A DNA stretch of 32,000 nucleotides from Nitrosopumilus oxyclinae (GCF_013407165.1 NZ_CP026994.1:864187-896186), one strand, 5' to 3'; counted from the stretch's first letter, positions 9,783 through 32,000 are shown. Notes: generated from the letters alone by a model not told the origin. Program-made: numbers and translations.

Positions 9783-10175
9783 TTAGATTTGACGTTCACT
9801 GACGTTTACCATCATAGATAGTGGCGGCGATAATGCCGAAGGATTGTCAATACTCTCCCAAACATACACCTGAATGTGATACGTTCCAGGTTCAGTAGGA
9901 ACCCAAGACTGTGCAGGAGAAAATGACTGTCTAGGAGACAAAGAACCAGTCAGCCAAGACAATGAAATCACAACATCGTTATCATCTCTAACTTGTGTAA
10001 TGTATGCAAAATTTTGTGGAGTGTCTTGATTGTTTGAAACATCAGCCACTATCATAATTTGTTCATTTACAAAATGGGTTTTATCTTCAGATGTGTTTTG
10101 TGCAGTTACAGGATCAGCAAAGGCTACACCCATTCCAGACATAATGAAAAGTAAAGAGAACAAAAGAATTTTCAT
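9783..10175 (-). CDS. Secreted hypothetical protein
   Basis: Signal peptide MKILLFSLLFIMSGMGVAFA, followed by a ~105-aa beta-rich domain. Confidence 0.65.
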   Translation of the reverse strand: MKILLFSLLFIMSGMGVAFADPVTAQNTSEDKTHFVNEQIMIVADVSNNQDTPQNFAYITQVRDDNDVVISLSWLTGSLSPRQSFSPAQSWVPTEPGTYHIQVYVWESIDNPSALSPPLSMMVNVSERQI

Positions 10176-10210
10176 AATCCGTATTAGTAGGATGTATATT
10201 TAATCTAGCT

Positions 10211-10417
10211 ATGGGGGATGAACTACCTGAGAATTTTCCTGAATTTTCAATAATGTACAAGACACTAACTAGTCAAATAAACAAGCTAAAAAAAGACAAA
10301 GAAAATCTCAAAGATAAAGAAAGGGATGAAATAGAATTAAAAATTCAATCATACCAATTAGAAATAGCAAAAATTAAGAAAAAGTTTCCAGATAACTTCT
10401 TTGAAGAATTAAGTTAA
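10211..10417 (+). CDS. Hypothetical coiled-coil protein
   Basis: 68 aa, K/E-rich with a heptad pattern. Confidence 0.45.
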   Translation: MGDELPENFPEFSIMYKTLTSQINKLKKDKENLKDKERDEIELKIQSYQLEIAKIKKKFPDNFFEELS

Positions 10418-10636
10418 TTACTCATGTGTATGATCATGGCCACAATCACAAGAATGATCATCGCCTTTCAGAGACATTAGTTGCTGTACCATTTCATCTC
10501 TAATTTTCAATAAATCTCCAACTTGTTGCTTCATAGATTCTGAATCCCAATTGCCTTGATGTAGTGCTCTAACCACATCAATTATCTCAAGATCAACATT
10601 TAGTAAATTATCCATCAGTTGTTCTTGCTCATTCAT
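10418..10636 (-). CDS. Hypothetical acidic protein with a His/Cys-rich C-terminus
   Basis: 72 aa ending in GDDHSCDCGHDHTHE, a possible metal-binding tail. Confidence 0.45.
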   Translation of the reverse strand: MNEQEQLMDNLLNVDLEIIDVVRALHQGNWDSESMKQQVGDLLKIRDEMVQQLMSLKGDDHSCDCGHDHTHE

Positions 10637-10686
10637 AATATCTCAATTATACACTAGAAGAAAAACTATTCTAATTAAAATTAATT

Positions 10687-11133
10687 TTATTCTGCTTCCA
10701 TGCTTTCTTTAAGCAGATTCTTCCTTACAAGAATTGGAATATTATAAAATGCACCCAATGCCATAGCATCTGAAGCACGATAGTTTCTCAATACAAGGTC
10801 TTTCTTACCTGTAAAGTATAGATTGGCACGCAACACATCACCACTTTCATAAATTTTGACTTTAACTAGAACCAATTCATTTTGTTCACAAATTTCTTCA
10901 ATCATCTTGTAAATGGATGGTGCGGCCTCACCTTCAGTTTCGCCAAAACTCGAGATATGTTTTGCAACTTCACCAGAAAAGGCCCTCATATGGAATTCTT
11001 TTCCATTATCAGCTTTTAGAACAACCATACCTTCAACGGCATAAGGATCAACGAATCCAACATAATCAATTTTCACAGACTCATAATCAGGCTCTTGTGC
11101 TTGATCAATTTCCATAGTAATACGAATAAACAT
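10687..11133 (-). CDS. Bifunctional nuclease (DUF151/BFN) family protein
   Basis: 148 aa. MVVLKADNGKEFHMRAFSGEVAKHI...APSIYKMIEEICEQN...VKIYESGDVLRANLYF resembles the BFN-domain pattern. Confidence 0.55.
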   Translation of the reverse strand: MFIRITMEIDQAQEPDYESVKIDYVGFVDPYAVEGMVVLKADNGKEFHMRAFSGEVAKHISSFGETEGEAAPSIYKMIEEICEQNELVLVKVKIYESGDVLRANLYFTGKKDLVLRNYRASDAMALGAFYNIPILVRKNLLKESMEAE

Positions 11134-11259
11134 CCTGGTCAGTGCTTATAAAGATAGCAAAAAAATGAGATCAAAATCATGAATTAGTTAATTATTTTTC
11201 AACGATCACTTCTCACGCGTAACCCCAAATTATTTAAAATCCCCAACTAAGGTAGCTTA

Positions 11260-13074
11260 ATGTCAACTAATCCAGAACGTGCCGTATCATATGTTCTTAG
11301 TAAGTACGTTACAGATTACATGGACAAAGATGTACTTACTCTCGGACAAGAGACACAAACCAGCGAAGCTGCCAGAATGTTACGTCACTACGAAACAGAT
11401 GACATTGTTGTTACAGACAAAAATAATTTTCCAGTAGGGATTGTTACCGATGAAGATATTCTAAGTAAAGTCAGTGACGTTACAGTTTACGCAGAATCTA
11501 CAAAATTGAAAGATATCATGAGTACACCTCTAATCACAATTAATGAAAAATCAACTTTACAAGATGCATTACATAAAATGAGAGATAATAACATTAGAAA
11601 ACTTCCAGTCTTATCAAAGAAAAATCAAGTAATCGGAATGATTTTTCAATCAGTTATTGCAAATGTCATAAGAGATGCAACTGCTACTGCACCTCGTTTA
11701 TTGAGTCCACCAGTAAAAGCCATTTTAGGAAATCTTGGATTTGTCTTACAGTTTGCAGGAGTGTTGCTTTTGGTTCCTGCAATTGTTGCAACAATATTAG
11801 AGGATACAACTACTGCTACTGGAATTTACCTGACTACTGTCCTTTTACTAGTTACAGGGTTTTTCCTCAACTCTTATGGTGAAAAATCAAGTTTAAATTT
11901 ACAACAAGCCTCGATTTTGGTGTTTTCAAGCCTGTTTTTACTATCGTTGTTTGGAACAGTGCCGTATCTGTACGTACTTCCAAGTGATGAAACAGATATT
12001 GAAAAATTCAGTAATGCATTCTTTTCTAGTGCTGCAGGATTTACAACTGGAGGAATATCATTATTTGATGAACCAGAAAAACTTACCCAGAGTTTCACAT
12101 TCTTTCGAAGTTATACCCAACTAGTAGGAGGAATGAGTTTCATTTACCTAGTAATTACTGCGTTTTATCCTGAATCTAAATTGCAATCAATGCGTGGTTT
12201 CATTTCAGGAAGAACATTGCACATGAAAGAATTATTTTCAACCATCACAGTCATCTTTGCGATTTACATTGTCATTGTTGCATCTCTACTGTATGTATTT
12301 GGAGAGGGAAATATCATTGATAATTTTTCGCTGGCTATGAGTACTCTATCTACAGGAGGATTTACACCCACATCGACAATTCTTGAAGGATTAGTTTGGC
12401 AAGAACATATTATTTTGATGGGGGCAATGATACTCGGAGCATTACCATTTACTTTCCACTATGCATTTGTAAGAAAAAAATTCCTTTCCCCAAAACTTGG
12501 AAAAGAAGTTTTAACATACTTTGCAATTTTAGGTAGTGCAACTGTTTTGTTTATTGGAATTAGCGGTTTAGATCCAATGCAGAGTGCATTTTATTCTGTA
12601 TCAGCCAGTACAACAGCAGGATTACAAATAGATAGTCTTGCAGGGTTGAGTGGCGGAGCACACGCCGTTTTGATAATTTTGATGGTAATTGGCGGATGTG
12701 GGTTTTCTACTACAGGAGGTTTGAAAATATTTAGAATTTTCCATCTCAGAGATGTTAAAGCAATGCTCAGTAAAGTAAAACGTGCAGAACTTGCCCCTCA
12801 AGCAAAAAAAGAAGTCATATCCACACTTATCATTCTAGCACTATTTCCTATAATTGCATCAATAACAGGATTACATCTTGCAGCAATTGAGGACGTTCCA
12901 TTCCAAGATGCATTTTTTGAATCAGTAGGAGTAATCACCACAGGAGGATTATCTGCAGGAGTAATTCATTTTGATACGGATCCTGCAACAAAAATTGTTT
13001 TAGGGTTTTTGATGATTTTTGGCAGATTGGAAATAATTGCAATCATCTACATTTTTGTACCTAAACTAAGCTAA
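11260..13074 (+). CDS. TrkH/KtrB-family cation (K+) transporter fused to an N-terminal CBS pair
   Basis: Residues ~20-140 form two CBS motifs (DIVVTDKNNFPVGIVTDEDIL; IRKLPVLSKKNQVIGMI). The rest is polytopic, with repeated TrkH-type selectivity-loop motifs (TTGG, STGG, TTAG, TTGG). Confidence 0.8.
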   Translation: MSTNPERAVSYVLSKYVTDYMDKDVLTLGQETQTSEAARMLRHYETDDIVVTDKNNFPVGIVTDEDILSKVSDVTVYAESTKLKDIMSTPLITINEKSTLQDALHKMRDNNIRKLPVLSKKNQVIGMIFQSVIANVIRDATATAPRLLSPPVKAILGNLGFVLQFAGVLLLVPAIVATILEDTTTATGIYLTTVLLLVTGFFLNSYGEKSSLNLQQASILVFSSLFLLSLFGTVPYLYVLPSDETDIEKFSNAFFSSAAGFTTGGISLFDEPEKLTQSFTFFRSYTQLVGGMSFIYLVITAFYPESKLQSMRGFISGRTLHMKELFSTITVIFAIYIVIVASLLYVFGEGNIIDNFSLAMSTLSTGGFTPTSTILEGLVWQEHIILMGAMILGALPFTFHYAFVRKKFLSPKLGKEVLTYFAILGSATVLFIGISGLDPMQSAFYSVSASTTAGLQIDSLAGLSGGAHAVLIILMVIGGCGFSTTGGLKIFRIFHLRDVKAMLSKVKRAELAPQAKKEVISTLIILALFPIIASITGLHLAAIEDVPFQDAFFESVGVITTGGLSAGVIHFDTDPATKIVLGFLMIFGRLEIIAIIYIFVPKLS

Positions 13075-13177
13075 AACTCTGAATTAATCAATTAACAAGA
13101 CAAATCCCAAAAATCTACGCTTATCACCAAACCAGAATTAGGATAGAATTTAATGTAATATCTAAAAAATTTCACAT

Positions 13178-14005
13178 ATGGGAGTCGAAGAGAAAAAAAA
13201 TACAACTCAAGGAAAAAAACTAATTGTTTTAGGATTTGTAACTATTGGAATTTTGTTTTTTATGTATGGTAGATATCAAGATCCAGAAGTCTTCACCCCT
13301 AGCGCCATGGATACCATACAAAGAATTGCATATGGATTTTACATTATTCTAATAGTATCATTTGGAGCCATTGGGTTTGGAACGTACAGATATCAAAGAG
13401 AAAAAGTGGAAAACAAAGGAAAGGATCTTTTATCAATTATTGCATTTGCCACATGGAATTCAAAATCTCGAAAAATTTTCACTGCAACATTTATCGGATA
13501 TGGAGTCTTTTTTTCACTTGTTTCAGGAACTCTAGTGTATCAACCAGAAGTTGACTTTTCTTATCATTATGGTGCTACCATCCCATCAGGATTCATTGCA
13601 CCATGTTGTGACGGAGCAGGATATATGCCACAAGTCATCATATATCTCACTGAACATGTAGGATTAAACATAATACCAATCAACCTAGTATTGCAAGTTA
13701 TTGTTTCATATTTGGTAGGATTAAACACCGTAATTGCAGTTAACGCTTATACAATTTCAAGAAAAGGTAGAGGGGCAAGCAGTATAGGTGCAATAGCTGG
13801 ATTATTTATCGCATGTCCTACTTGTGCAGGAACATTTTTGTCAATATTTATTGGAACTGCAAGCGGGATTGCATTGTCAATTGCTTTAACTCAACTGCAA
13901 ACATTTTTCATTGCAATATCAATTCCCATCTTACTAGTAACCCCATTTATCATGGCAAAGAAATTAAGAAATACAGATGGTAGTTGTAAAATCAATTTAA
14001 ATTAA
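13178..14005 (+). CDS. Polytopic membrane protein with conserved Cys motifs
   Basis: 275 aa with about 6 TM helices and the motifs APCCDGAGY and ACPTCAG. Family not recognised. Confidence 0.65.
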   Translation: MGVEEKKNTTQGKKLIVLGFVTIGILFFMYGRYQDPEVFTPSAMDTIQRIAYGFYIILIVSFGAIGFGTYRYQREKVENKGKDLLSIIAFATWNSKSRKIFTATFIGYGVFFSLVSGTLVYQPEVDFSYHYGATIPSGFIAPCCDGAGYMPQVIIYLTEHVGLNIIPINLVLQVIVSYLVGLNTVIAVNAYTISRKGRGASSIGAIAGLFIACPTCAGTFLSIFIGTASGIALSIALTQLQTFFIAISIPILLVTPFIMAKKLRNTDGSCKINLN

Positions 14006-14250
14006 AATTTCTTTACTTCAGGAATTTTATGGTTCCCAATATCATACCCGTCTCGGCGTAGAAATTTCAGTGTAAGTTTGTAAATAATTTCATCATGATC
14101 AACTTTTTCTAAAATCTCAGTCCAGAGTACCTTGCCATTATTTTCAATAATTTTTTTAAAATCAGGATTCATAGATTCTGCCATATCTCTGCATTGATCA
14201 AATGTTTTGCCATTTTTGTAAGCACGAACACGCCTATCACAACTATCCAT
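14002..14250 (-). CDS. Hypothetical protein
   Basis: 82-aa ORF with no competing frame. Confidence 0.45.
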   Translation of the reverse strand: MDSCDRRVRAYKNGKTFDQCRDMAESMNPDFKKIIENNGKVLWTEILEKVDHDEIIYKLTLKFLRRDGYDIGNHKIPEVKKF

Positions 14251-14327
14251 ATTGAAGATAGATCAAAATTGTAAATAAACCTAGTATGAACAAATTCAAA
14301 CAAATACTAGACTAGGGAATAAAAAAT

Positions 14328-14561
14328 ATGGCAATAAAATCAACTGAAGAATATATTGACTTTTTCATAAATTTGAACATGGGAGAAAATGTCCCATTGT
14401 TGAGTTTCGTAAATAACGAAAGAATGGTTCTAAAACAAAAATTAGAATACAAAAATTTGGAAAAAGAGCCCATTAAGAAAGGAATCGAAATATTGGAAAA
14501 ATTAGTAACAGAGATTAGCGAGATGGGACAAAAAGCAGTAATTGAAAAATATCAAAAGTGA
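14328..14561 (+). CDS. Hypothetical protein
   Basis: 77-aa ORF immediately upstream of the wHTH gene on the same strand. Confidence 0.45.
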   Translation: MAIKSTEEYIDFFINLNMGENVPLLSFVNNERMVLKQKLEYKNLEKEPIKKGIEILEKLVTEISEMGQKAVIEKYQK

Positions 14562-21989: not shown

Positions 21990-23342
21990 TTAAGAATCAT
22001 CCAAATATCGCAAATATTTCATGTCCAAAATATATGGTGTAACTCCGTAAATGGAGTCACCAATTAGAAGACCATCCTCATCAGTGAGAAAAATATATGT
22101 TTGATCAGAAAATTCTTCTCCAATTCCAAATACAAGTTTAATTTTAACACCTGAAATATCTAATAAAAATTCAGATTGAAAAAGATGAGTTGGAATCACT
22201 TCCGAGTTATCAGAATCACTAAAATAGGCCTGTAAATCTTCAGGAGCAATAATTTCAACAGAACCATCACCTTCTTCTAGAAATGCTTTAGAACCTAAAA
22301 GAAGGTCAGAGTTTTCTTGAGTGTAGATTATTGTTTTAATAGGTTTATCAGAAAATAGTATTCTAAAGTCATCCAATAGTTTTTTTGCAGATTCATATGA
22401 AGTTAAAGTGTCAATCACAATTATTCCAGAATCACCTTCAATTAACAAACTATTTGTGGAATCATATCCCACAGCAACCCAAATCCCATCCCTTAATTGA
22501 TATATTCTTGGAATATTTGAAGAGTATGAGAATGTAGATTCATTATCTCGTTCTTGTTCATCTCGTTCTTGTTCATCTCGTTCTTGTTCATCTCGTTCTT
22601 GTTCATCTCGTTCTTGTTCATCTCGTTCTTGTTCATCTCGTTCTTGTTCATCTCGTTCTTGTTCATCTCGTTCTTGTTCATCTCGTTCTTGTTCATCTCG
22701 TTCTTGTTCATCTCGTTCTTGTTCATCTCGTTCTTGTTCATCTCGTTCTTGTTCATCTCGTTCTTGTTCATCTCGTTCTTGTTCATCTCGTTCTTGTTCA
22801 TCTCGTTCTTGTTCATCTCGTTCTTGTTCATCTCGTTCTTGTTCATCTCGTTCTTGTTTACCCTCATCAATGTTTTTTTCATCATTTATAATTTCAGCCA
22901 GACCTAAACGCTCCCAACTAAGTGCAGTTGAAGGACTGGTACAAAATGTATCATGATGAATAAATCGATAAATTAGAGTATAGCCATCCCGGCATTCAGA
23001 ATCATCTTGAGAAATACGTTGTTTTTTAGGTGGTAATGGAGGTGAAGTAGGAATTTCAATTTCATCTTCAGCAACAATTTCATAAGATTTAGTCTCAGAT
23101 GGTTTAGGATATTCTGAAACGGTATTGGCCAAACCTAATTCTACCCATCGATCAGCAGTAGAAGGTATAACACAGACATATTGTTTAGAGGTAGTTCGAT
23201 AAACCATCACTTCCCCGTTAGGACACCCTGCCTGAATATCTTCTTGAGCCTCAGATTCTACGGATGCAAAAGAATGTGGAACTATTGCCGAGGAAAATAA
23301 AATAAACAATATTGGCAATAAAGCATACTTTCTTGTCTGCAT
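21990..23342 (-). CDS. Secreted protein: two Cys-pair modules, an (ERDEQ)n acidic repeat linker and a degenerate metallo-beta-lactamase-like C-terminal domain
   Basis: It has a signal peptide. A duplicated module is present (CPNGEVMVYR..YVCV.PSTADRWVELGLA and CRDGYTLIYR..TFCTSPSTALSWERLGLA), followed by 21 ERDEQ units. The C-terminal IVIDTL...KPIKTIIYTQENSDLLLG resembles an MBL N-terminal half in which the HxHxDH motif has been replaced. Confidence 0.75.
   Translation of the reverse strand: MQTRKYALLPILFILFSSAIVPHSFASVESEAQEDIQAGCPNGEVMVYRTTSKQYVCVIPSTADRWVELGLANTVSEYPKPSETKSYEIVAEDEIEIPTSPPLPPKKQRISQDDSECRDGYTLIYRFIHHDTFCTSPSTALSWERLGLAEIINDEKNIDEGKQERDEQERDEQERDEQERDEQERDEQERDEQERDEQERDEQERDEQERDEQERDEQERDEQERDEQERDEQERDEQERDEQERDEQERDEQERDEQERDEQERDNESTFSYSSNIPRIYQLRDGIWVAVGYDSTNSLLIEGDSGIIVIDTLTSYESAKKLLDDFRILFSDKPIKTIIYTQENSDLLLGSKAFLEEGDGSVEIIAPEDLQAYFSDSDNSEVIPTHLFQSEFLLDISGVKIKLVFGIGEEFSDQTYIFLTDEDGLLIGDSIYGVTPYILDMKYLRYLDDS
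22546..22860. repeat. Tandem repeat, 15-bp unit x 21 (tctcgttcttgttca)
   Basis: Counted directly: 20 identical units plus a last unit with one substitution. The repeat is in-frame and encodes ERDEQ on the minus strand. Confidence 0.97.
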
Positions 23343-23543: not shown

Positions 23544-24959
23544 TTGAAAATAAAAGAAACAATTTCAAAACTTAATGAAAGTATTCAAAATAACTATGGA
23601 GATCCAGGGAGAACGTTATACATTATTGAAAAATTAGAAAAAAACAGAAATTTACCAAAGTCAGATCTTGCATATATTGAAAGAATAGTCAAACTATGCA
23701 CTCTAGTTTTTGAGGAATCCAGTCCAGAGAAAACTGTTGAAAATATAGTATTAGAAGATCTGATAAAATGCTATCATTGTGATACTGAAATTAATTTAGA
23801 TGAGAAATCAATTAGAAAAAATAATTTTTGGTTTCACGATAAATGTTTTGAGGAATCCAGTCCAGAGAAAACTGTTGAAAATATAGTATTAGAAGATCTG
23901 ATAAAATGCTATCATTGTGATACTGAAATTAATTTAGATGAGAAATCAATTAGAAAAAATAATTTTTGGTTTCACGATAAATGTTTTGAAAAAATCCCAA
24001 TAATAAAAACAAATAATTTACAAAAAATAGAACCAATCAAAAAAGAAATAAAACAACCATCTAGAATTATTAAAACAAAGACAACCATACCTCAAATGGT
24101 TTTTTCAGGAGGGTTATTGGCATCCCTTGTAGGAACAACCTATTTTTGGGCAGGAGAAGTAATATCTCTAGTTGTAGGAGTGTGTGGGACTGCACTATAT
24201 TTTGCAACATTCAAGCCTCAAATTGTTTCTAAGAAAAGAAAAAATGCCGAATTTGTTAAAACAGGCATCCCAGGTTTTGATTCAACATTATCAGTGGGTC
24301 TCAAAAAAAATAGTTCTGTAGTTGTTTCAGGTCCTCCAGGAAGTGGAAAGACAACATTTGGTTTACAGTTTATCTATTCAGGAGCTAAAGAATTTGAAGA
24401 AAATGGCATATACATTTCACTATCACAAAGCATTGAAGAAATAAAAAATGATTGTAAAACATTTGGTTGGGATATTGATGAACTAGTATCCAAAGGGAAA
24501 ATCCTAATGATAGATTTGAGGCCATTTAAAATTAAAGATGAAGTAGTTGGACGAGATGATTCATTATACAGAGGAGAGCAGATTCCATTTGAACATTTAA
24601 CAAAATTTATCCTAAACAGCATAAAGAAGATCAAAGCAAAGAGAATTGTGATTGATTCAATCTCTATTCTGGGAATGCAATATTCAGACAAGTTTTACAT
24701 GAGGCAAGGTTTACAAGGTATGATTCAATCCCTTGAGAATTTTGGAGTAACTTCACTTTTAATTTCAGAATTTTCAGAAAAGGACGAAGTTCCACTCGAA
24801 TGGTTTGTCACATCAGGAATAATTCAATTGGACAATCAAATAATCAACAATGAAATGAAACGTACTATCAAAATAATAAAATTACGAGGTATTGAGCACA
24901 GTGAGCAAGTTCATTCAATAGAATTAGGAAGTAATGGACTGTATGTATACGAAGATTAG
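23544..24959 (+). CDS. Membrane-anchored KaiC/RecA-superfamily ATPase with an N-terminal GDxGR module and duplicated Zn-knuckle-like segments
   Basis: Walker A is VVSGPPGSGKTTFGLQF and Walker B is KRIVIDSISIL. It also has a KaiC-like GIPGFD motif, 1-2 TM helices (~aa 190-225), and an N-terminal YGDPGRTLYIIEKLEKNRNLPKSDLAYIERIV. TTG start. Confidence 0.75.
   Translation: MKIKETISKLNESIQNNYGDPGRTLYIIEKLEKNRNLPKSDLAYIERIVKLCTLVFEESSPEKTVENIVLEDLIKCYHCDTEINLDEKSIRKNNFWFHDKCFEESSPEKTVENIVLEDLIKCYHCDTEINLDEKSIRKNNFWFHDKCFEKIPIIKTNNLQKIEPIKKEIKQPSRIIKTKTTIPQMVFSGGLLASLVGTTYFWAGEVISLVVGVCGTALYFATFKPQIVSKKRKNAEFVKTGIPGFDSTLSVGLKKNSSVVVSGPPGSGKTTFGLQFIYSGAKEFEENGIYISLSQSIEEIKNDCKTFGWDIDELVSKGKILMIDLRPFKIKDEVVGRDDSLYRGEQIPFEHLTKFILNSIKKIKAKRIVIDSISILGMQYSDKFYMRQGLQGMIQSLENFGVTSLLISEFSEKDEVPLEWFVTSGIIQLDNQIINNEMKRTIKIIKLRGIEHSEQVHSIELGSNGLYVYED
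23712..23987. repeat. Perfect tandem duplication, 2 x 138 bp, inside the KaiC-like gene
   Basis: By direct comparison, 23712-23849 is identical to 23850-23987. Each copy encodes 46 aa (ESSPEKTVENIVLEDLIKCYHCDTEINLDEKSIRKNNFWFHDKCF). Confidence 0.95.
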
Positions 24960-25902: not shown

Positions 25903-25920
25903 TTATGCTTTATCAATAAA
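25903..25920. repeat. Left copy of the target-site duplication (ttatgctttatcaataaa)
   Basis: An identical 18-mer recurs at 30001-30018, where it forms the last 5 codons plus the stop of aEF-2. The boundary with the TIR is ambiguous by up to 3 nt because of an A/T run. Confidence 0.85.
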
Positions 25921-26094
25921 AAGGCAAAGCCCCCCTTTTGTTCCTGAATAGTTGGTAATGACTAGGATTATGATGGAAGATTGTTTGTTGGAAATAGCTT
26001 ATTTTCTAGTGTTGAATTTATGAAAATATGACAGACGAATATGCTGAACTACAAAAATTACGAGCACTTTGGAGTAAGGCAATCATTCAACGTG
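25920..26094. repeat. Left terminal inverted repeat (TIR-L)
   Basis: By base-by-base comparison, the reverse complement of 29826-30000 equals 25920-26094 except at 26090/29830. Confidence 0.9.
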
Positions 26095-26624
26095 ATTATA
26101 TTTTCATCCCGTTAGTTTTAGGTATAGTTTCAGTTTCATTATCACAATTACCCAACTTTCCTCCAGAATGGAGATTTGTATTTTTAGTCTTTGAAGGGAT
26201 TCTATTGACATTTGCAATGGCGTACTGGAGATATCTGACGAGAATGACAGACAAAGGAATTGTCGGTCTATATGGAAGAATGATGGAACTGGAAAAAAAG
26301 GATGGAATGGATACTCAAACTCAATACTATTACAGATATCTAAAAGATGAACACAGAGGCAAGATCAACAAGGAAGTAGGATTAGAAAAAGATAATGTGA
26401 ATTTTTCAAAATTCAGGGAAATGTCTACAAAGATCAAAGAAGGATATCATTATGATTTGCTATTAGGAATCTGGAATGATTTGGAATTTAATTCTGTAAA
26501 ACCACGAGGTCATGAAATTCATAATGCATTTGCAATATCACTAATTGTAGCATATTGGGTAACCTTTGCTATTTTTGGATTGGCATTTCCTGATGCGGTG
26601 CTCATAGAAACTGTTAATCCTTAA
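26028..26624 (+). CDS. Element-encoded membrane protein (3-4 TM), hypothetical
   Basis: 198 aa. The first 22 codons lie inside TIR-L. Its stop overlaps the cas1 start (TAATG). Confidence 0.65.
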   Translation: MTDEYAELQKLRALWSKAIIQRDYIFIPLVLGIVSVSLSQLPNFPPEWRFVFLVFEGILLTFAMAYWRYLTRMTDKGIVGLYGRMMELEKKDGMDTQTQYYYRYLKDEHRGKINKEVGLEKDNVNFSKFREMSTKIKEGYHYDLLLGIWNDLEFNSVKPRGHEIHNAFAISLIVAYWVTFAIFGLAFPDAVLIETVNP

Positions 26625-27643
26625 TGGCTCTTCAAGGTAAGAAAAACCACTACAACGTTAAATTCCTCAAAGGATACGGCCACTCCATTTCAGTCAAAAA
26701 TTCTAAAATTATCCTCAAATCCAATCATGACCCATTTTCTGAGCCTGAAATTGAAGAATGGGCAGTCAAAAATATGCCTTATGAGAAAATAGTAATGCAA
26801 GGAAAAGGGTACATCTCCACTGAAGCATTAACACAACTTTCTGAGAATAATCGAAATGTGATTTTACTAGACCATCACGGAAAGCCAGTTACTTTTTGCA
26901 ATGGCATGATGGATTCTTTAACTGGAACTAAATACAAAATGGCACAATATGACACGTTTCGAAATGAATCAAAATGTCAATATTTGACAAAACAGATTAT
27001 TTCTGCCAAAAAAGAATCTCAACTGAAACTACTCAAACTAATTGGCAGTCCTGTTGATACCCTATCTGATAAGGAAAATGTTTCAGCCATCACATACTGG
27101 AGGGAATTTGCTAAATTTATTCCTCCAAAATATGGATTCCAATCAAGAAATCAGTCTTCTATCAAAATATCCAAAAAAGATGCAACTGATATCATCAATG
27201 CTTTGTTAAATTATGGGTATTCTGTCTTGGCAGGGGAAATCTCAAAATTTGTTTGTGGATTTGGTCTAGACCCATACCTTGGATTTATGCATCGTACACA
27301 TTCAGGTTTTCAACCCCTTGTCTATGATATTATAGAACCATTCAGATGGATGGTAGATTATTCAGTGTACAAAATTGCAAATCACAAGGATTCAAGAAAA
27401 CAAATCAAACTCAAAGAGTATAGTTATTCAAAAGACGGAACCATAGTAATTGAATATGCTCTGATCAAGCGGTTCTTGGAGTTATTGGAAAGACAGTTTT
27501 CACAGGAGAGAAAGTATAATTCTAGGTATGGAAAGAAGACTGAATCTGGTTTGAAATCAGTTCAAGAGATTACAATTGGGAAGATTAAAGTTCAAAATTT
27601 AGTAGAATACTGTCTAGGGAAACAACTGAAAATAGAATTTTAA
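26624..27643 (+). CDS. cas1: Cas1-family integrase (casposase)
   Basis: 339 aa. The N-terminal beta domain reads ..EKIVMQGKGYISTEALTQLSENNRNVILLDHHGKPV. The C-terminal catalytic region is INALLNYGYSVLAGEI...GLDPYLGFMHRTHSGFQPLVYDIIEPFRWMVD, the Cas1 His and Glu/Asp motifs. Confidence 0.85.
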   Translation: MALQGKKNHYNVKFLKGYGHSISVKNSKIILKSNHDPFSEPEIEEWAVKNMPYEKIVMQGKGYISTEALTQLSENNRNVILLDHHGKPVTFCNGMMDSLTGTKYKMAQYDTFRNESKCQYLTKQIISAKKESQLKLLKLIGSPVDTLSDKENVSAITYWREFAKFIPPKYGFQSRNQSSIKISKKDATDIINALLNYGYSVLAGEISKFVCGFGLDPYLGFMHRTHSGFQPLVYDIIEPFRWMVDYSVYKIANHKDSRKQIKLKEYSYSKDGTIVIEYALIKRFLELLERQFSQERKYNSRYGKKTESGLKSVQEITIGKIKVQNLVEYCLGKQLKIEF

Positions 27644-27644
27644 A

Positions 27645-28322
27645 TTAAATTTTTGTATCGGCATTTATCTGAGTAAATACAACACCATATTCTTTGAGAG
27701 ATTTCTTTTCAGTAATTGTCGAATTCAATCGTTCAATTGCTATAATTACATTATCTTTAGTTTGATTCCATAACTTGTCATGCATGTGGATTTTACCATA
27801 CATAGGAATTAAACACATTTCAGACATTTCGATGTTCCCACCTACAAAATACGATATTTCTGGGGGTAAGTCTGATTCTATTATTTGTAGATCTTTTTTC
27901 ATTACATTAAAGTACAAAAAATTTGGCACTTCTTTTTGCTGTCCATCTAAATTTAGTGTTATCACATGAGTCATTTTGAATTTCTCATAAAATGGTACAT
28001 TTAATTTCTCAAATTCTTTTTTAGGCAAATTTTCTAAAACTTCAAAATAATTTTTTATTTTTTCTAAATCTACAACTAATTTCGTAGCATAAAAATTAAT
28101 TCTGTTATTTCGTGTTTTTTCTAAATTACCGAGAAATATTTTTTGTCTTTTTTCATTCTCTTTTGTAGTGCCATAAACTATAGTTGTTATGACAATACCT
28201 ACTGCAATTTCAGCTACCAATGTAACATTATTGTTAATTTCATCAACAGTGTTTAAGAAAACTGCCAATGCAGTCATAGTTATAATTGCTAAAATAACAT
28301 AAACATAGAATTTTTTTTCCAT
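27645..28322 (-). CDS. Element-encoded two-TM protein, hypothetical
   Basis: 225 aa with two N-terminal TM helices and then a ~160-aa soluble domain. No family recognised. Confidence 0.6.
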   Translation of the reverse strand: MEKKFYVYVILAIITMTALAVFLNTVDEINNNVTLVAEIAVGIVITTIVYGTTKENEKRQKIFLGNLEKTRNNRINFYATKLVVDLEKIKNYFEVLENLPKKEFEKLNVPFYEKFKMTHVITLNLDGQQKEVPNFLYFNVMKKDLQIIESDLPPEISYFVGGNIEMSEMCLIPMYGKIHMHDKLWNQTKDNVIIAIERLNSTITEKKSLKEYGVVFTQINADTKI

Positions 28323-28394
28323 TTATTATTAAGAAAAATAAATGAACTTAAGCATATTGGAAAAGCAGTAATAGTTCATAAAATAATACTCATC

Positions 28395-29123
28395 ATGGTA
28401 TGGACTTCATCTAAAAACGCAGATGCTAAAAACAGAATAAAACAATTTGATAAGGATAGATTGTTTGTTCCCAATAAGCAAGGTCAGACAATTCCAAAAA
28501 TCGAAAACATGAGATTAGGGGAAGCCAAAGAATTCAATCTTGCAGTAATGCATGTGGATATGAATAATTTTAAAGGATTAACAGGGTCATTGACAAATGA
28601 ACAAAAATTACGTTTTTTGAATATCTATTTGTCTGAATTTACTCATATGATTAGAGAATATGATGGATTTGTTGAAAAATATGTAGGGGATAGCATCACT
28701 GCATTATTTGGAGTTGGGAAGGATGATCAACAATCATGTTTAGATGCAGTACATTGTGGATTATCAATGTTAACTGAAGTATATTATGCAATGAATACAT
28801 ATCTTGATTCAATTGGTTTACCTAAATTTTCATGTTCCATAGGAATTGATTTTGGCTCAATTTGGGTGGCACGAGTAGGTGTTCAAGGAATGAATCAATT
28901 GACATTGGTTGGTAATGAAGTTAGTATTGCAAAACAAATAGAAGAATTTGCTGGAAATCATCAAATATTTGTAGGAGGTGGAGCATATCTAAATTTGAAT
29001 AAACATGAACAAGCAATATGTAAAATACAAAATCAGAGAAGTGATTTTAACTGGACTTGGTTTCAAGGGAAAAAATATCCCTTCTATCACTATACTGCCC
29101 ATTGGGAAGGTTTTGATTTATGA
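28395..29123 (+). CDS. Class III nucleotidyl cyclase domain protein (PycC-like)
   Basis: AVMHVDMNNFKGLT ... FVEKYVGDSITALFGV ... CSIGIDFGSIWVARVG..NQLTLVGNEVSIAKQIEEFA matches the adenylate/guanylate cyclase catalytic-domain pattern, including both metal-binding Asp positions. Confidence 0.75.
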   Translation: MVWTSSKNADAKNRIKQFDKDRLFVPNKQGQTIPKIENMRLGEAKEFNLAVMHVDMNNFKGLTGSLTNEQKLRFLNIYLSEFTHMIREYDGFVEKYVGDSITALFGVGKDDQQSCLDAVHCGLSMLTEVYYAMNTYLDSIGLPKFSCSIGIDFGSIWVARVGVQGMNQLTLVGNEVSIAKQIEEFAGNHQIFVGGGAYLNLNKHEQAICKIQNQRSDFNWTWFQGKKYPFYHYTAHWEGFDL

Positions 29124-29617
29124 GCGATAATGAGAAAATTGCTTTTGCAAGAGATGCTTTAGAGCACAACAATAGCATAATCAATCTCATTGACACCAAG
29201 TCAGGTTTGGTTTTGGGTGCCTCTGGAATTATTTTGGGTTTGCTTACATTTTTTGAACGTGATGGATTAGGCTATGCAATATTTCCTTTATTTGTCACAA
29301 TGGGATTATTGTTAGGGACTATCATGTTTTCATTTTTCACCATTTTCCCACGAATTACAAAAAAATTCAAAGGGGAAACGGCAATTTTCTATCCTGCAAT
29401 AACAAAATTATCCATGAGTGAATTTGAAGAAAAATTGAAAAAATACTCTACAGAAGATATTCTCAAAGATTATGCTAATAACATACATAGTTTAGCAAAA
29501 GTACAGGAAAGAAAATTCGAGGTTCTGCGTATTTCAATGGGATTTATGATTGCATCTTCTATTTCATTAGTGATTACTTTAATTTGTTATTTCCAAAATC
29601 AACCCATTTCACAATAA
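29120..29617 (+). CDS. Small 3-TM protein resembling the Pycsar TM effector family (DUF5706-like)
   Basis: 165 aa. An N-terminal helix ends in LIDTKSG (compare the aDtKA motif), followed by two TM helices, a ~55-aa soluble segment and a final TM helix. Its start overlaps the cyclase stop (ATGA). Confidence 0.55.
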   Translation: MSDNEKIAFARDALEHNNSIINLIDTKSGLVLGASGIILGLLTFFERDGLGYAIFPLFVTMGLLLGTIMFSFFTIFPRITKKFKGETAIFYPAITKLSMSEFEEKLKKYSTEDILKDYANNIHSLAKVQERKFEVLRISMGFMIASSISLVITLICYFQNQPISQ

Positions 29618-29892
29618 GGACATTCAACTTCTTCTTTGTGTGATTTTACCAATCCTACAAACATCTCTAAACATTCTGTACAAACATACTTGATTCTTTT
29701 CCTTTTCTGAGTCTTGTAATACATTGCTTGTAATGTATTCACTCGCTGAGTTTTGAAATTCCCTTCCTCATCATAGTAATAGATGTGCCATTTCTTCTTT
29801 GTAGATTTTTTATGCTTGTGATTTCCACGATGAATGATTGCCTTACTCCAAAGTGCTCGTAATTTTTGTAGTTCAGCATATTCGTCTGTCAT
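29599..29892 (-). CDS. Element-encoded basic Zn-ribbon protein
   Basis: 97 aa. The first 20 residues (codons lying in TIR-R) are identical to those of 26028-26624. It is K/R/H-rich, with C-terminal CTEC...CPYC. Confidence 0.55.
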   Translation of the reverse strand: MTDEYAELQKLRALWSKAIIHRGNHKHKKSTKKKWHIYYYDEEGNFKTQRVNTLQAMYYKTQKRKRIKYVCTECLEMFVGLVKSHKEEVECPYCEMG

Positions 29893-30000
29893 ATTTTCAT
29901 AAATTCAACACTAGAAAATAAGCTATTTCCAACAAACAATCTTCCATCATAATCCTAGTCATTACCAACTATTCAGGAACAAAAGGGGGGCTTTGCCTTT
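29826..30000. repeat. Right terminal inverted repeat (TIR-R)
   Basis: See TIR-L. The outer terminus is ggggggctttgccttt. Confidence 0.9.
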
Positions 30001-30018
30001 TTATGCTTTATCAATAAA
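30001..30018. repeat. Right copy of the target-site duplication, which is also the native 3' end of the aEF-2 gene
   Basis: ttatgctttatcaataaa is the reverse complement of F-I-D-K-A-stop. Confidence 0.85.
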
Positions 30019-32000
30019 TTCGTTAACACCTGGTGGTTCTGGTGCCAATCCCTTTCTCTTTCTAATGTCAGCTACTGCTGCACCTAACATGGATTTTGGA
30101 ACTTCAGTCCATGCCTTAAATGAAGTATTCCAGGTTGCACGACCTGCAGTTTGTCCTCTCATTGCTTCAGATAGTGTAAATGTTTCAGAAGCTGGAATCT
30201 CACCAATAACAATGCTTGATGCGCCTTTTTGGCTCATGTCAAGTACTTTACCTCGTTTACCAGAAAGAATAGTTGCAACGTTACCAACCAAATCAGTTGG
30301 GACACGAACTTCAATTGCCAGTGTTGGCTCTAATACTGCAGTTCCTGCAGTGAGCAATGCACCCATACATGCACGTCTTGATGCAGGTCCTAATTGAGAC
30401 AAACCTCTGTGTGCCGTATCCTCGTGAGGTACAAAGTGAGTAAAGATGAATTTACAATCCCTCATCTGTTCTTTACAGAGAGGTCCCTCTTTCATTACTT
30501 CTTCAAATCCTGAATTAATAGAATCAGTTGATTCTTGTACAAACTGAACACCTTTTGTTCCGTTAATCAAAACATTACCACGTGAATCAAATTTCATAAC
30601 CCTCTTGATTGTATCTGTATCCCATCCATTCTCTTTTAGTAAATCAGAAACTGCCTTCTTGTCTTTGAGGTCTGAAATTTCACCGGTTCTTAGCATGTGG
30701 GCAATTTTTGGTTCTAATGGTTCCACTTTCATGAAAATCTTGTTGTGTCTGTTTGGTGATTTTGCCATAATTGGTTCACAACCACCCTTTACAGTTTCTC
30801 TATAGTTAATCAAAGGCTCAGATGTTATAATCTCACATTTTGCATCCTGAATTCTATGTACTGCAACATCCAAATGTAATACACCCATCCCTGCAACAAT
30901 TGTTTCGCCAGACTCCTCATCAATTTTTACAACTAAATTTGGATCCTCAATTGTTAGTTGTCTTAAAATGTCTACGAGTTTAGGTAAATCTTTAGGATGT
31001 TTTGGTTCAATTGCAATTTGAACAACAGGTTCTGAAACGTATTTCACACCCTCAAACATTGGAATATCTTTAATTGATGATAGAGTGTTTCCGGCTCTAC
31101 ATTCAGTCAGTCCCAGTAAAGCTGGAATATTACCTGCTCCCAATTCACCAACTTGTTCTCTTTGGTTACCCATAAAGAAATTGACTGATTGAACTCTGCC
31201 TTCTCTTTTCTCATCTATAATGTGTAAAGTTTGACCGTCTTTGATGGTACCTGAAAATAATCTTCCAATTGCAACAGGACCGGCTGCTGGATCTAGGACC
31301 ATGTTTACAACCATCATAATTGTTGGACCATCATCACTACCTGCAAGCAAAGCTTTACCAACATCAGATTCTAAATCACCTTTCCAAATTTGTGGGATTC
31401 TATACTTGATTGCATCATGTGGTGCTGGATGATGTTTAACTACCATTCCAAGTACAGCATCAGCTAATGGTGCTTTCTCAATAAGTTCATCAAGTTTTTC
31501 TTCAGTATATGCATCAATTACATCTTTGAATGTTATTCCTCTTTCTTTCATTAAATCAGTGTTAATTGCCCATCTATCTTTGGCTGAACCAAATGTAACA
31601 CTTGCATCTTGAATAGATACTTTCCATTTCTCTTTGTATTCTGGTTCTGCATATGTGTCAACTAGAGTATTGAAATTTGAAACTACTTCAGCTAATTGTG
31701 CTTGCATTTTTTCTGGAGTTAATCTTAGTTCTTTGATGAGTCTATCCACTTTGTTGATAAACAAAACAGGTTTTACTCTCTCTTCAAGGGCCATTCTAGT
31801 TACAGTCTCTGTTTGTGTCATGATACCTTCTACTGCATCACAAACTACAACTGCACCATCAATTGCTCTAAGACTTCGAATAACCCTTCCACTAAAGTCG
31901 ACGTGGCCTGGGGTATCAATCATGTTAATTACATATTCTTGACCTTTTTGGGCAAAGAGTAAGGTAACGTTTGCTTGGTAAATTGTAATTCCTCTTTCTT
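30001..32000 (-). CDS. fusA: Translation elongation factor aEF-2 (N-terminus lies beyond the window edge)
   Basis: It has the G-domain motif DTPGHVDF, NKVDR, and the diphthamide-site motif HEDTAHRG. The frame stays open upstream of the first Met to position 32000. Confidence 0.95.
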   Translation of the reverse strand, partial: ERGITIYQANVTLLFAQKGQEYVINMIDTPGHVDFSGRVIRSLRAIDGAVVVCDAVEGIMTQTETVTRMALEERVKPVLFINKVDRLIKELRLTPEKMQAQLAEVVSNFNTLVDTYAEPEYKEKWKVSIQDASVTFGSAKDRWAINTDLMKERGITFKDVIDAYTEEKLDELIEKAPLADAVLGMVVKHHPAPHDAIKYRIPQIWKGDLESDVGKALLAGSDDGPTIMMVVNMVLDPAAGPVAIGRLFSGTIKDGQTLHIIDEKREGRVQSVNFFMGNQREQVGELGAGNIPALLGLTECRAGNTLSSIKDIPMFEGVKYVSEPVVQIAIEPKHPKDLPKLVDILRQLTIEDPNLVVKIDEESGETIVAGMGVLHLDVAVHRIQDAKCEIITSEPLINYRETVKGGCEPIMAKSPNRHNKIFMKVEPLEPKIAHMLRTGEISDLKDKKAVSDLLKENGWDTDTIKRVMKFDSRGNVLINGTKGVQFVQESTDSINSGFEEVMKEGPLCKEQMRDCKFIFTHFVPHEDTAHRGLSQLGPASRRACMGALLTAGTAVLEPTLAIEVRVPTDLVGNVATILSGKRGKVLDMSQKGASSIVIGEIPASETFTLSEAMRGQTAGRATWNTSFKAWTEVPKSMLGAAVADIRKRKGLAPEPPGVNEFIDKA

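Follow-up and report, generated by a model that had tools for sequence, protein, structure and literature searches.

How a casposon can come to lack its own DNA polymerase, and whether such an element is a minimal form in its own right or the derivative of a larger one, is the question raised by a locus in the chromosome of the ammonia-oxidizing archaeon Nitrosopumilus oxyclinae. According to reviews and methods papers, characterized casposons invariably contain both Cas1 and a family B DNA polymerase (PolB) (PMC6452270, PMC9966878). The stretch of DNA analyzed here, hereafter the window (32,000 nucleotides (nt); NZ_CP026994.1:864187-896186), contains at positions 25903-30018 a 4.1-kb element that encodes Cas1 and no polymerase. 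An earlier note, made from the sequence of the window, had described it as either a new minimal casposon or a deletion derivative, and had suggested that it moved recently. Here, we present evidence that the element belongs to a known lineage, the family 1 casposons, and that its right end carries the scar of a rearrangement. We consider it likely that this polymerase-less family 1 derivative at the elongation factor gene ef-2 was made by one fold-back copying event and integrated afterwards.

The element is genuine and its ends are precisely defined. Inverted-repeat arms at 25916-26094 and 29826-30004 match over 179 nt (99.4%), and their sole mismatch pairs position 26091 with 29829; the terminal inverted repeats (TIRs) of about 175 bp with one mismatch reported in the earlier note are thereby borne out and refined. 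An exact 18-mer, TTATGCTTTATCAATAAA, is present at 25903-25920 and 30001-30018, each copy abutting its arm, again at the coordinates first given. Because an inverted repeat of 177 nt with one mismatch is combined with an exact 18-mer precisely at both ends, a chance origin of either repeat is ruled out. Between the arms lie six open reading frames (ORFs) of 198, 339, 225, 242, 165, and 97 amino acids (aa), in agreement with the positions and lengths initially claimed.

The right-hand 18-mer constitutes the final codons and the stop codon of ef-2 on the minus strand (...NEFIDKA, stop). The casposase of N. koreensis generates a true target duplication of 13 bp (ATTGATAAAGAGT) associated with a leader (TTT) and a ruler (ATAA); that the repeat looks longer in that organism is due to overlap with the flanks (PMC8464041). 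By analogy with this biochemistry, the true target-site duplication (TSD) in N. oxyclinae is probably the 13-bp core ATTGATAAAGCAT, read on the ef-2 strand, rather than the apparent 18 bp. The distal copy would then occupy 25905-25917 and the proximal copy 30003-30015, which places the element at 25918-30002 (4085 bp), bounded by a left TIR at 25918-26094 (plus strand) and a right TIR at 29826-30002 (minus strand). The target gene, encoding archaeal elongation factor 2 (30001-32000, minus strand; six EF-G/EF-2 Pfam domains), has an intact 3' end and continues past the window; its product shares 96-97% identity with its EF-2 counterparts in N. cobalaminigenes and N. sediminis. The 3' end of ef-2, whose role as the standard target the earlier note had missed, is the commonest published target of thaumarchaeal casposons (PMC4046053, PMC6563490).

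The 339-aa ORF (cas1; 26624-27643, plus strand) encodes a family 1 casposase that has no helix-turn-helix (HTH) domain at its C terminus. The earlier identification of this protein as Cas1 from its GFMH and DIIEPFR motifs is confirmed by profile matches (PF01867, E-value 2e-40; TIGR00287, E-value 1e-37). With the Cas1 of Ca. N. sediminis AR2 it shares 82% identity, and with the Cas1 proteins from Ca. N. koreensis AR1 and N. adriaticus NF5, 79%; these three strains host the family 1 casposons NitAR2-C1, NitAR1-C1, and NitNF5-C1/C2, respectively (PMC4046053, PMC6563490). Of its relatives with a solved structure, the casposase of Methanosarcina mazei (6OPM) is the best match, and the catalytic residues E151, H223, D235, and E238 are invariant in 14 relatives. 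For comparison, 80 metagenomic loci were retrieved by alignment to family 1 Cas1, and a scan of genome contigs with the single N. oxyclinae Cas1, which used overly strict exact peptide patterns, yielded only three close loci; IMG/VR contained no relatives. In a neighbor-joining tree of 83 Cas1 sequences, the N. oxyclinae protein groups with those of five loci, L059, L083, L060, L063, and L061, all of which bear a polymerase.

The ends of the element are likewise those of family 1. Its terminal 19 nt, TAAAAAGGCAAAGCCCCCC (25917-25935), recur without change at the ends of L061, L119, and an element of Nitrosopumilus sp. K4, and fit a motif, TAAAAA-(GGCA/TAGA/GGGA)A..CCCCCC, that is found at about 30 family 1 ends and occurs just twice in the window. 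The GGCA-type variant was considered as a marker of elements without PolB and rejected, since the polymerase-bearing L061, L123, and L126 also carry it. Most family 1 ends additionally share the block GATTTGTTGGAAA followed by a TTATAA-like box, located approximately 25 nt upstream of the first inward-reading ATG, which itself lies approximately 108-123 nt from the end. In the N. oxyclinae element, the conserved block TTTGTTGGAAA with its A/T-rich box is found at 25984-26006 and has a counterpart at 29914-29936, and the inward-reading ATGs are at 26028 and 29892. Judged by established promoter architecture, the block inside the repeat may be an archaeal promoter comprising a transcription factor B recognition element (BRE) and a TATA box. 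The element shows no anomaly in G+C content, and no tRNA or Rfam family was detected in the 32-kb window.

Because Cas1 nests within family 1, and the end motif and ef-2 target are also those of family 1, a new transposon family is rejected. The element is a member of the known family 1 lineage at its known site, and of the two alternatives in the earlier note the deletion derivative is the better supported. Nor is it comparable to a miniature inverted-repeat transposable element (MITE), a non-autonomous form in which the ends are kept and the transposase is lost: its casposase gene is intact and only the replication module is gone.

The extent of this loss is apparent from full-length relatives. 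In L059 (N. cobalaminigenes), L060 (N. sediminis), and about 20 metagenomic loci, the gene order is a terminal gene, cas1, variable genes, three small genes, and a gene for a protein-primed PolB (pPolB) of approximately 594 aa. Neither pPolB nor the three small proteins gave a tblastn match in the window; the small proteins of N. cobalaminigenes (76, 111, and 105 aa) match nearly all of the polymerase-bearing loci. A hidden Markov model (HMM) built from 26 casposon polymerases and searched against six frames of the 32 kb gave a best E-value of 0.93 (positive control, 1026 bits), and PF03175 had no match in the ORFs of the element. There is no polymerase remnant in the element; the lack of PolB asserted in the earlier note thus extends to fragments of the gene.

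One polymerase-bearing relative, L070, shares part of the gene content of the N. oxyclinae element. It is located on a 119.5-kb Nitrosopumilus contig, in tandem with the casposon L064 and beside ef-2, and has 76-nt TIRs. Its gene order is an SNase-like gene, cas1, pycC, pycTM (the latter two a predicted defense pair, described below), an orf97 homologue, a 167-aa gene, three small genes, a divergent pPolB, and a terminal gene. With the exception of orf225, the gene order in the window matches that of L070 through orf97, the encoded proteins being 78% (cas1), 44% (pycC), 41.5% (pycTM), and 71% (orf97 homologue) identical. L070 was considered as a second casposon carrying this pair without PolB, a candidate that was rejected when its ORF listing revealed the divergent pPolB inside.

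The origin of the deletion is recorded at the right end, in a gene that the earlier note had not recognized as a conserved casposon gene. The 97-aa ORF (orf97; 29599-29892, minus strand) is chimeric: its first approximately 20 codons come from orf198, and the remainder, from ...IHRGNH onward, encodes a casposon zinc-ribbon/basic protein. Homologues 63-78% identical to orf97 are present in many polymerase-bearing elements; in 18 loci the gene is internal, and in all of them its native start is MKYVVSVSKTYIHRGNH (also written MKYVVSVSKTYIHRG). In the window, the start is instead MTDEYAELQKLRALWSKAIIHRGNH (compare MTDEYAELQKLRALW), and the first 20 residues are the same as those of orf198. The latter gene (26028-26624, plus strand), whose stop codon overlaps the start of the co-oriented cas1 by one base, encodes a predicted multi-helix membrane protein and belongs to the family of the first inward-reading gene at other family 1 ends; in L154/L155, for example, a family member is the first gene beside the casposon end, approximately 110 nt away. 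The 59 representatives of this family can be aligned from residue 1 and have the native N-terminus M.DEYEELQKLR.LWSKAI.TR..IFIPL. Because the shared N-terminus is native to the orf198 family and foreign to the orf97 family, the left arm, which comprises the end motif, the conserved block, and the start of orf198, is the original, and the right arm, with its promoter-like block at 29914-29936, is the derived, inverted copy. The opposite polarity, with the right arm as the original, had been considered on the grounds that tblastn homology of orf97 starts at residue 16, inside the repeat; it was rejected on the evidence of the orf198 family N-terminus and the DNA junction.

This junction was examined in an alignment of the 5' ends of orf198, orf97, and seven native orf97-family genes, anchored on the SK codons. 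The DNA of the two arms is identical from the end to ...ATCATTCA, where native orf97 genes have ...ACATTCA(C/T)CG(T/A)GG.... Since the arm DNA and the native orf97 DNA meet at this point, the junction is an 11-nt microhomology, ATTCA-N-CGTG (29825-29834, minus strand), and it holds the only TIR mismatch (29829). The sole mismatch is thus the N of the microhomology, so that the copied 173 nt are 100% identical. The TIR of this element is the longest among 21 complete elements, the remaining ones being 27-122 nt. Only the outer approximately 100 nt of each arm are homologous to other casposon ends; most of the inner part had no match in the casposon loci compared before those with orf198 homologues were added, which fits with its being 5' coding sequence of orf198.

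These features suggest the following history. The ancestor would have had the gene order of L070, namely end, terminal gene, cas1, pycC, pycTM, orf97, small genes, pPolB, terminal gene, end. From this ancestor, a single strand truncated or displaced in replication would fold back such that its 3' end, which lay in the 5' portion of orf97, annealed to that of orf198 at ATTCA-N-CGTG, and would then be extended as far as the left terminus. Such an event would have three outcomes: the deletion of everything beyond orf97, the former right end and the polymerase module included; the formation of an inverted copy of the left end, perfect over 173 nt; and the fusion of 20 orf198 codons to orf97, which would now lie under a copy of the left promoter. 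Approximately 4-5 kb would have been lost in this manner because pairing took place at an internal microhomology. The casposase would subsequently insert the shortened linear element at ef-2, using the TTT leader, the 13-bp ATTGATAAAGCAT, and the ATAA ruler, and gap repair would yield the duplication and leave EF-2 unaltered. In the resulting element, the left arm is predicted to drive orf198-cas1 and the right arm to drive orf97, and for further movement the element would depend on a polymerase provided in trans or by the host.

The proposed order of events, polymerase loss and then integration, is suggested by the right junction. At the right end, the sequence breaks off precisely at the terminal base and is followed by a direct copy of the target rather than by the inverted left flank, so that the simplest history is integration of the shortened element after the polymerase had been lost, and this is probably what occurred. 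The recent mobility suggested in the earlier note is upheld solely by inference from this junction structure. At the orthologous site in N. sediminis AR2, both flanks are conserved (86-88% DNA identity with the flanks of NitAR2-C1), and the same position and orientation are occupied by a different 7.6-kb polymerase-bearing casposon with different ends, whose cas1 DNA is 80% identical to that in the window. Empty ef-2 sites exist in related Nitrosopumilus contigs; their downstream flanks are not orthologous to those of the window, and a look-up of the 143-aa flanking protein identified no exact empty site.

Polymerase loss is not confined to N. oxyclinae. Among the 80 metagenomic loci, five further complete elements, each with TIRs and a TSD, have no pPolB within 10 kb or to the end of the contig. 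L119 (2.5 kb) encodes Cas1 and a NERD nuclease and has a perfect 49-nt TIR; L135 (2.3 kb) encodes a Cas1 bearing H223Y and an FkbM methyltransferase; L121 (2.15 kb) has a flawed Cas1 frame (a stop codon in the tblastn match; longest ORF 291 aa); L097 (2.6 kb) has unequal ends and encodes Cas1 and a secreted Excalibur-domain protein related to the SNase-bearing protein of L070; and L138 is 5.8 kb long. In the cultured Nitrosopumilus sp. K4 (L152, CP067007.1, 9451 to about 13900), a Cas1 element of approximately 4.4 kb with a NERD gene lies at ef-2, and its end is nearly identical to that in the window (identical over the first 19 nt). With neither a pPolB within 10 kb nor a distal end or duplication that could be detected, it is a decayed polymerase-less casposon. 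A polymerase in decay is present in L002 (4.6 kb, 9867-14451), in which pPolB (11916-13736) is split over three frames. In the Cas1 tree, the polymerase-less elements are scattered among the polymerase-bearing ones, indicating that polymerase loss is recurrent and derived. Six polymerase-less elements compare with 15 polymerase-bearing ones among those that are complete, a ratio biased toward short elements, which are easier to assemble.

The element might be taken to belong to a separate lineage of minimal transposons, equipped with Cas1 alone and without a polymerase from the outset, that would move by cut-and-paste or with host replication and constitute a new casposon family. The window holds no trace of PolB alongside its intact Cas1, TIRs, and TSD, the five other complete elements without PolB measure 2.2-5.8 kb, and a family 1 casposase alone integrates mini-casposons of 1-4 kb in vitro (PMC8464041), all of which would be expected of such a lineage. 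However, the N. oxyclinae Cas1 is nested within polymerase-bearing family 1; the PolB-less elements form no clade of their own, and the neighbor-joining tree already suggests a polymerase-bearing sister for each of them. Ends and target are shared with polymerase-bearing elements, and orf97, whose position in full-length elements is internal, has been cut short and fused precisely at the edge of the TIR. We consider a primordially polymerase-free lineage very unlikely. There is still less to recommend the view that the locus is a remnant of a CRISPR-Cas adaptation module with a CRISPR-type Cas1 and no transposon. Generic Cas1 profiles do match, and the GenBank name of the protein is 'CRISPR-associated endonuclease Cas1', but the 32 kb contain no CRISPR-like array, the six ORFs of the element match no PADLOC cas model other than Cas1, and a Pfam scan of seven flanking ORFs revealed neither Cas2 nor any other cas family. 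Moreover, the nearest relatives are all casposon Cas1 proteins, the best solved structure is a casposase, and TIRs and a TSD are present; we give this explanation practically no credence.

The element could alternatively be an immobile relic, rearranged in place and since then a fixed defense island in which cas1 has not yet decayed. It is present in a single copy, and no near-identical relative exists among 5.8 billion proteins; the element at ef-2 in K4 is comparable, being without PolB and having lost its distal end, and decay is evident elsewhere, in L121, in L135 (H223Y), and in the frameshifts of the L002 pPolB. An inverted copy made in place should, however, continue into the inverted left flank, whereas the new end stops at the terminal base next to a direct target copy. 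The six ORFs and the catalytic residues of Cas1 are intact, and the 173 nt that were copied have not diverged at all. A relic of this kind therefore appears improbable.

Several observations also weigh against the explanation preferred here. A11 of the target is essential for the N. koreensis casposase in vitro (PMC8464041), and A occupies this position in every other ef-2-type duplication inspected (L060, L064, L003, L121, and L138), but position 11 is C in both copies of ATTGATAAAGCAT (30003-30015 and 25905-25917). The nearest Cas1 neighbor is 85% identical and lies on a 1.3-kb contig, and no close full-length parent was found. Among the best 120 of 706 pPolB matches, none came from the N. 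oxyclinae genome. The Pycsar proteins of L070 are just 41-44% identical to those in the window, so that common ancestry of the cargo arrangement is plausible and no stronger. Neither a second copy of the element nor an excision product came to light, nor did an empty site with an exact match. Finally, the fold-back mechanism is deduced from one junction, and a two-step history, in which a deletion was followed by conversion of the end, or an in situ template switch with a precise return, is possible. Taking these points together with the structure of the right end, we still favor a family 1 derivative formed by fold-back copying and then integrated at ef-2.

The fold-back step has a parallel in other replicons. 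In protein-primed linear replicons such as adenovirus, terminal repeats are repaired by panhandle or fold-back copying. A panhandle intermediate, with which the proposed event is consistent, was put forward for casposons by Krupovic et al. in 2014 (PMC4046053). As in adenovirus-type repair, one end of the N. oxyclinae element would have been restored by exact copying of the other in inverted orientation, and the repeat lengthened to the point of pairing; unlike that process, the event here is deduced from a junction alone, and the pairing would have been at an internal microhomology.

The element resembles the family 1 casposons NitAR1-C1, NitAR2-C1, NitSJ-C1, and NitNF5-C1/C2 (PMC4046053, PMC6563490) in its casposase (79-82% identical, no HTH), its TAAAAA..CCCCCC end motif, its target at the 3' end of ef-2, its type of duplication, its zinc-ribbon gene, and the start of inward-reading genes approximately 110 nt from each end. 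It differs from them in lacking pPolB and all of the three to four small genes upstream of pPolB, both of which are listed as universal in the family; in its length (4.1 kb, compared with 4.6-11.7 kb in the complete polymerase-bearing elements measured); in its TIR (173-177 nt, compared with 38-122 nt); in having a right end that is an inverted copy of the left; and in its cargo. In combining ends and cargo without a polymerase, in a size range of 1-4 kb, and in its target sequence class, 13-bp duplication, and ATAA ruler, it also resembles the artificial mini-casposons in which a marker was placed between 20-bp TIRs and integrated by the N. koreensis casposase (PMC8464041). Unlike these constructs it is natural and chromosomal, encodes its own casposase, and has a C in place of the A11 that is essential in vitro.

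The cargo, which the earlier note did not identify, is a pair of genes assigned by their profiles to the pyrimidine cyclase system for antiphage resistance (Pycsar). The 242-aa ORF (pycC; 28395-29123, plus strand) encodes a nucleotide cyclase with a class III cyclase fold that matches the PADLOC model PycC (PDLC02367, E-value 1e-28) and PF00211 (E-value 1e-11; 45 bits, cut-off 21.9), and its structure matches in the Protein Data Bank include 7R65 and 8JSF, 'cytidylate cyclase'. The 165-aa ORF (pycTM; 29120-29617, plus strand) encodes a transmembrane effector matching PF18967 (53.7 bits, cut-off 27.2) and the PADLOC model PycTM (E-value 2e-26). Because pycTM overlaps pycC by 4 nt, the two genes form an operon. 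By sequence they constitute a Pycsar defense pair whose activity is predicted: by homology, PycC would make a cyclic pyrimidine nucleotide upon infection and PycTM would then kill the cell, and such abortive infection may be the reason that the host retains the element. The arrangement is that of Pycsar systems generally (PF18967, PADLOC), in which a cyclase gene and a transmembrane effector gene form an operon, with both profiles above threshold; what sets it apart is its location in a casposon of an ammonia-oxidizing archaeon. In Nitrosarchaeum haohaiensis, a family 1 Cas1 and 'pycsar_unknown' genes have been reported, unlinked (PMC12097351).

The remaining ORFs have no assigned function, neither orf198 nor orf225 having a match in Pfam, NCBIfam, or PHROGs. 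The latter (27645-28322, minus strand) lies directly after cas1 on the opposite strand, encodes an N-terminal membrane helix, and is a sporadic casposon gene. Remote homologues identified with jackhmmer occupy the same place after cas1, on the opposite strand, in L113, L001, and L067; in L137 the homologue is farther from cas1 and on the same strand. AlphaFold2 single-sequence models were too poor for a fold search in the case of orf198 (predicted local distance difference test score (pLDDT) 55.5) and unusable in the case of orf225 (pLDDT 33.6). A protein look-up additionally identified 13 contigs with a truncated, 58-aa homologue of orf198 that matches the window sequence at each of its first 19 residues. 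In the three of these contigs that were retrieved, L156 (8714, 9458), L157 (9891), and L158 (4680, 5424), this truncated gene follows a window-like end at another chromosomal site, in a TFIIB/response-regulator neighborhood, and the two ends of L156 are in direct orientation; these ends are either remnants or arrays.

The comparison of loci also bears on the arrangement and targets of family 1 casposons at large. Casposon ends lie back to back, 1-13 nt apart (mostly 11-13), at L003, L064/L070, L073, L078, L083, L101, L103, L107, L109, L112, L124, and L132, indicating tandem arrays of family 1 casposons; these are far commoner than would be thought from the one case published for Thaumarchaeota, that of N. 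adriaticus NF5. Two end types, GGCAAT and GGGAAAG, with a TIR identity of 79%, are combined in the short Cas1 elements L097 (8649, 11282) and L096 (1193, 4349), and such elements could have arisen as chimeras when a deletion joined tandem casposons. Targets other than ef-2 were also observed. In L119 (9637-9656, 12162-12181) and L135 (27-43, 2344-2360), the target is the 3' end of a 340-aa gene that we take from its sequence to encode an isocitrate/isopropylmalate dehydrogenase, and in L097 (8636-8651, 11281-11296) and L002 (9855-9870, 14449-14464) it is the 3' end of a gene of approximately 105 aa whose product ends in ...IADEAIKNL. In all four cases the duplication spans the stop codon.

Elsewhere in the window, two perfect repeats lie within coding sequence. 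A 15-bp tandem repeat of 20.9 copies at 22545-22858 (ATCTCGTTCTTGTTC, 100% matches) is contained in a minus-strand 450-aa ORF (21990-23342) with a match to the metallo-beta-lactamase fold; its unit on the coding strand, GAACAAGAACGAGAT, would encode E-Q-E-R-D if in frame, and it is probably a very recently expanded coding repeat. A 138-bp sequence is present twice at 23708-23989, in the N-terminal part of a KaiC-like ATPase ORF (23544-24959).

Decayed casposons and solo TIRs are already known (PMC4779613). In the literature that we searched, which left most subscription journals outside its range, no paper described polymerase-less casposons with intact ends, Pycsar systems in casposons, or the N. 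oxyclinae element. A broader interpretation, which we offer tentatively and hold to be doubtful in its entirety, is that polymerase-less family 1 casposons are a recurrent and still mobile Cas1-only class that spreads defense genes in ammonia-oxidizing archaea, and that the element is the footprint of a single-stranded fold-back (panhandle) intermediate that was subsequently integrated by the casposase. If this were true, the element would provide the first natural evidence for the proposed replication intermediate of casposons, as well as for the in vivo integration of a casposon no longer encoding a polymerase.

Recurrent polymerase loss, the junction scar, and the defense cargo are what makes this element noteworthy. 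Casposons are defined as self-synthesizing, and the element together with its five metagenomic relatives shows that polymerase-less derivatives have arisen repeatedly and kept the casposase, the ends, and the duplication; they are natural test objects for the requirement for a polymerase in casposon movement. The scar at the right end lends support, at the level of sequence, to a single-strand or panhandle intermediate in casposon replication. The predicted Pycsar cargo of two casposons would add these transposons to the vehicles of abortive infection in archaea that are mostly without CRISPR. Finally, loss of the polymerase by a casposon next to defense genes is one step in the scenario of how CRISPR adaptation arose, and the N. 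oxyclinae element resembles such a step.

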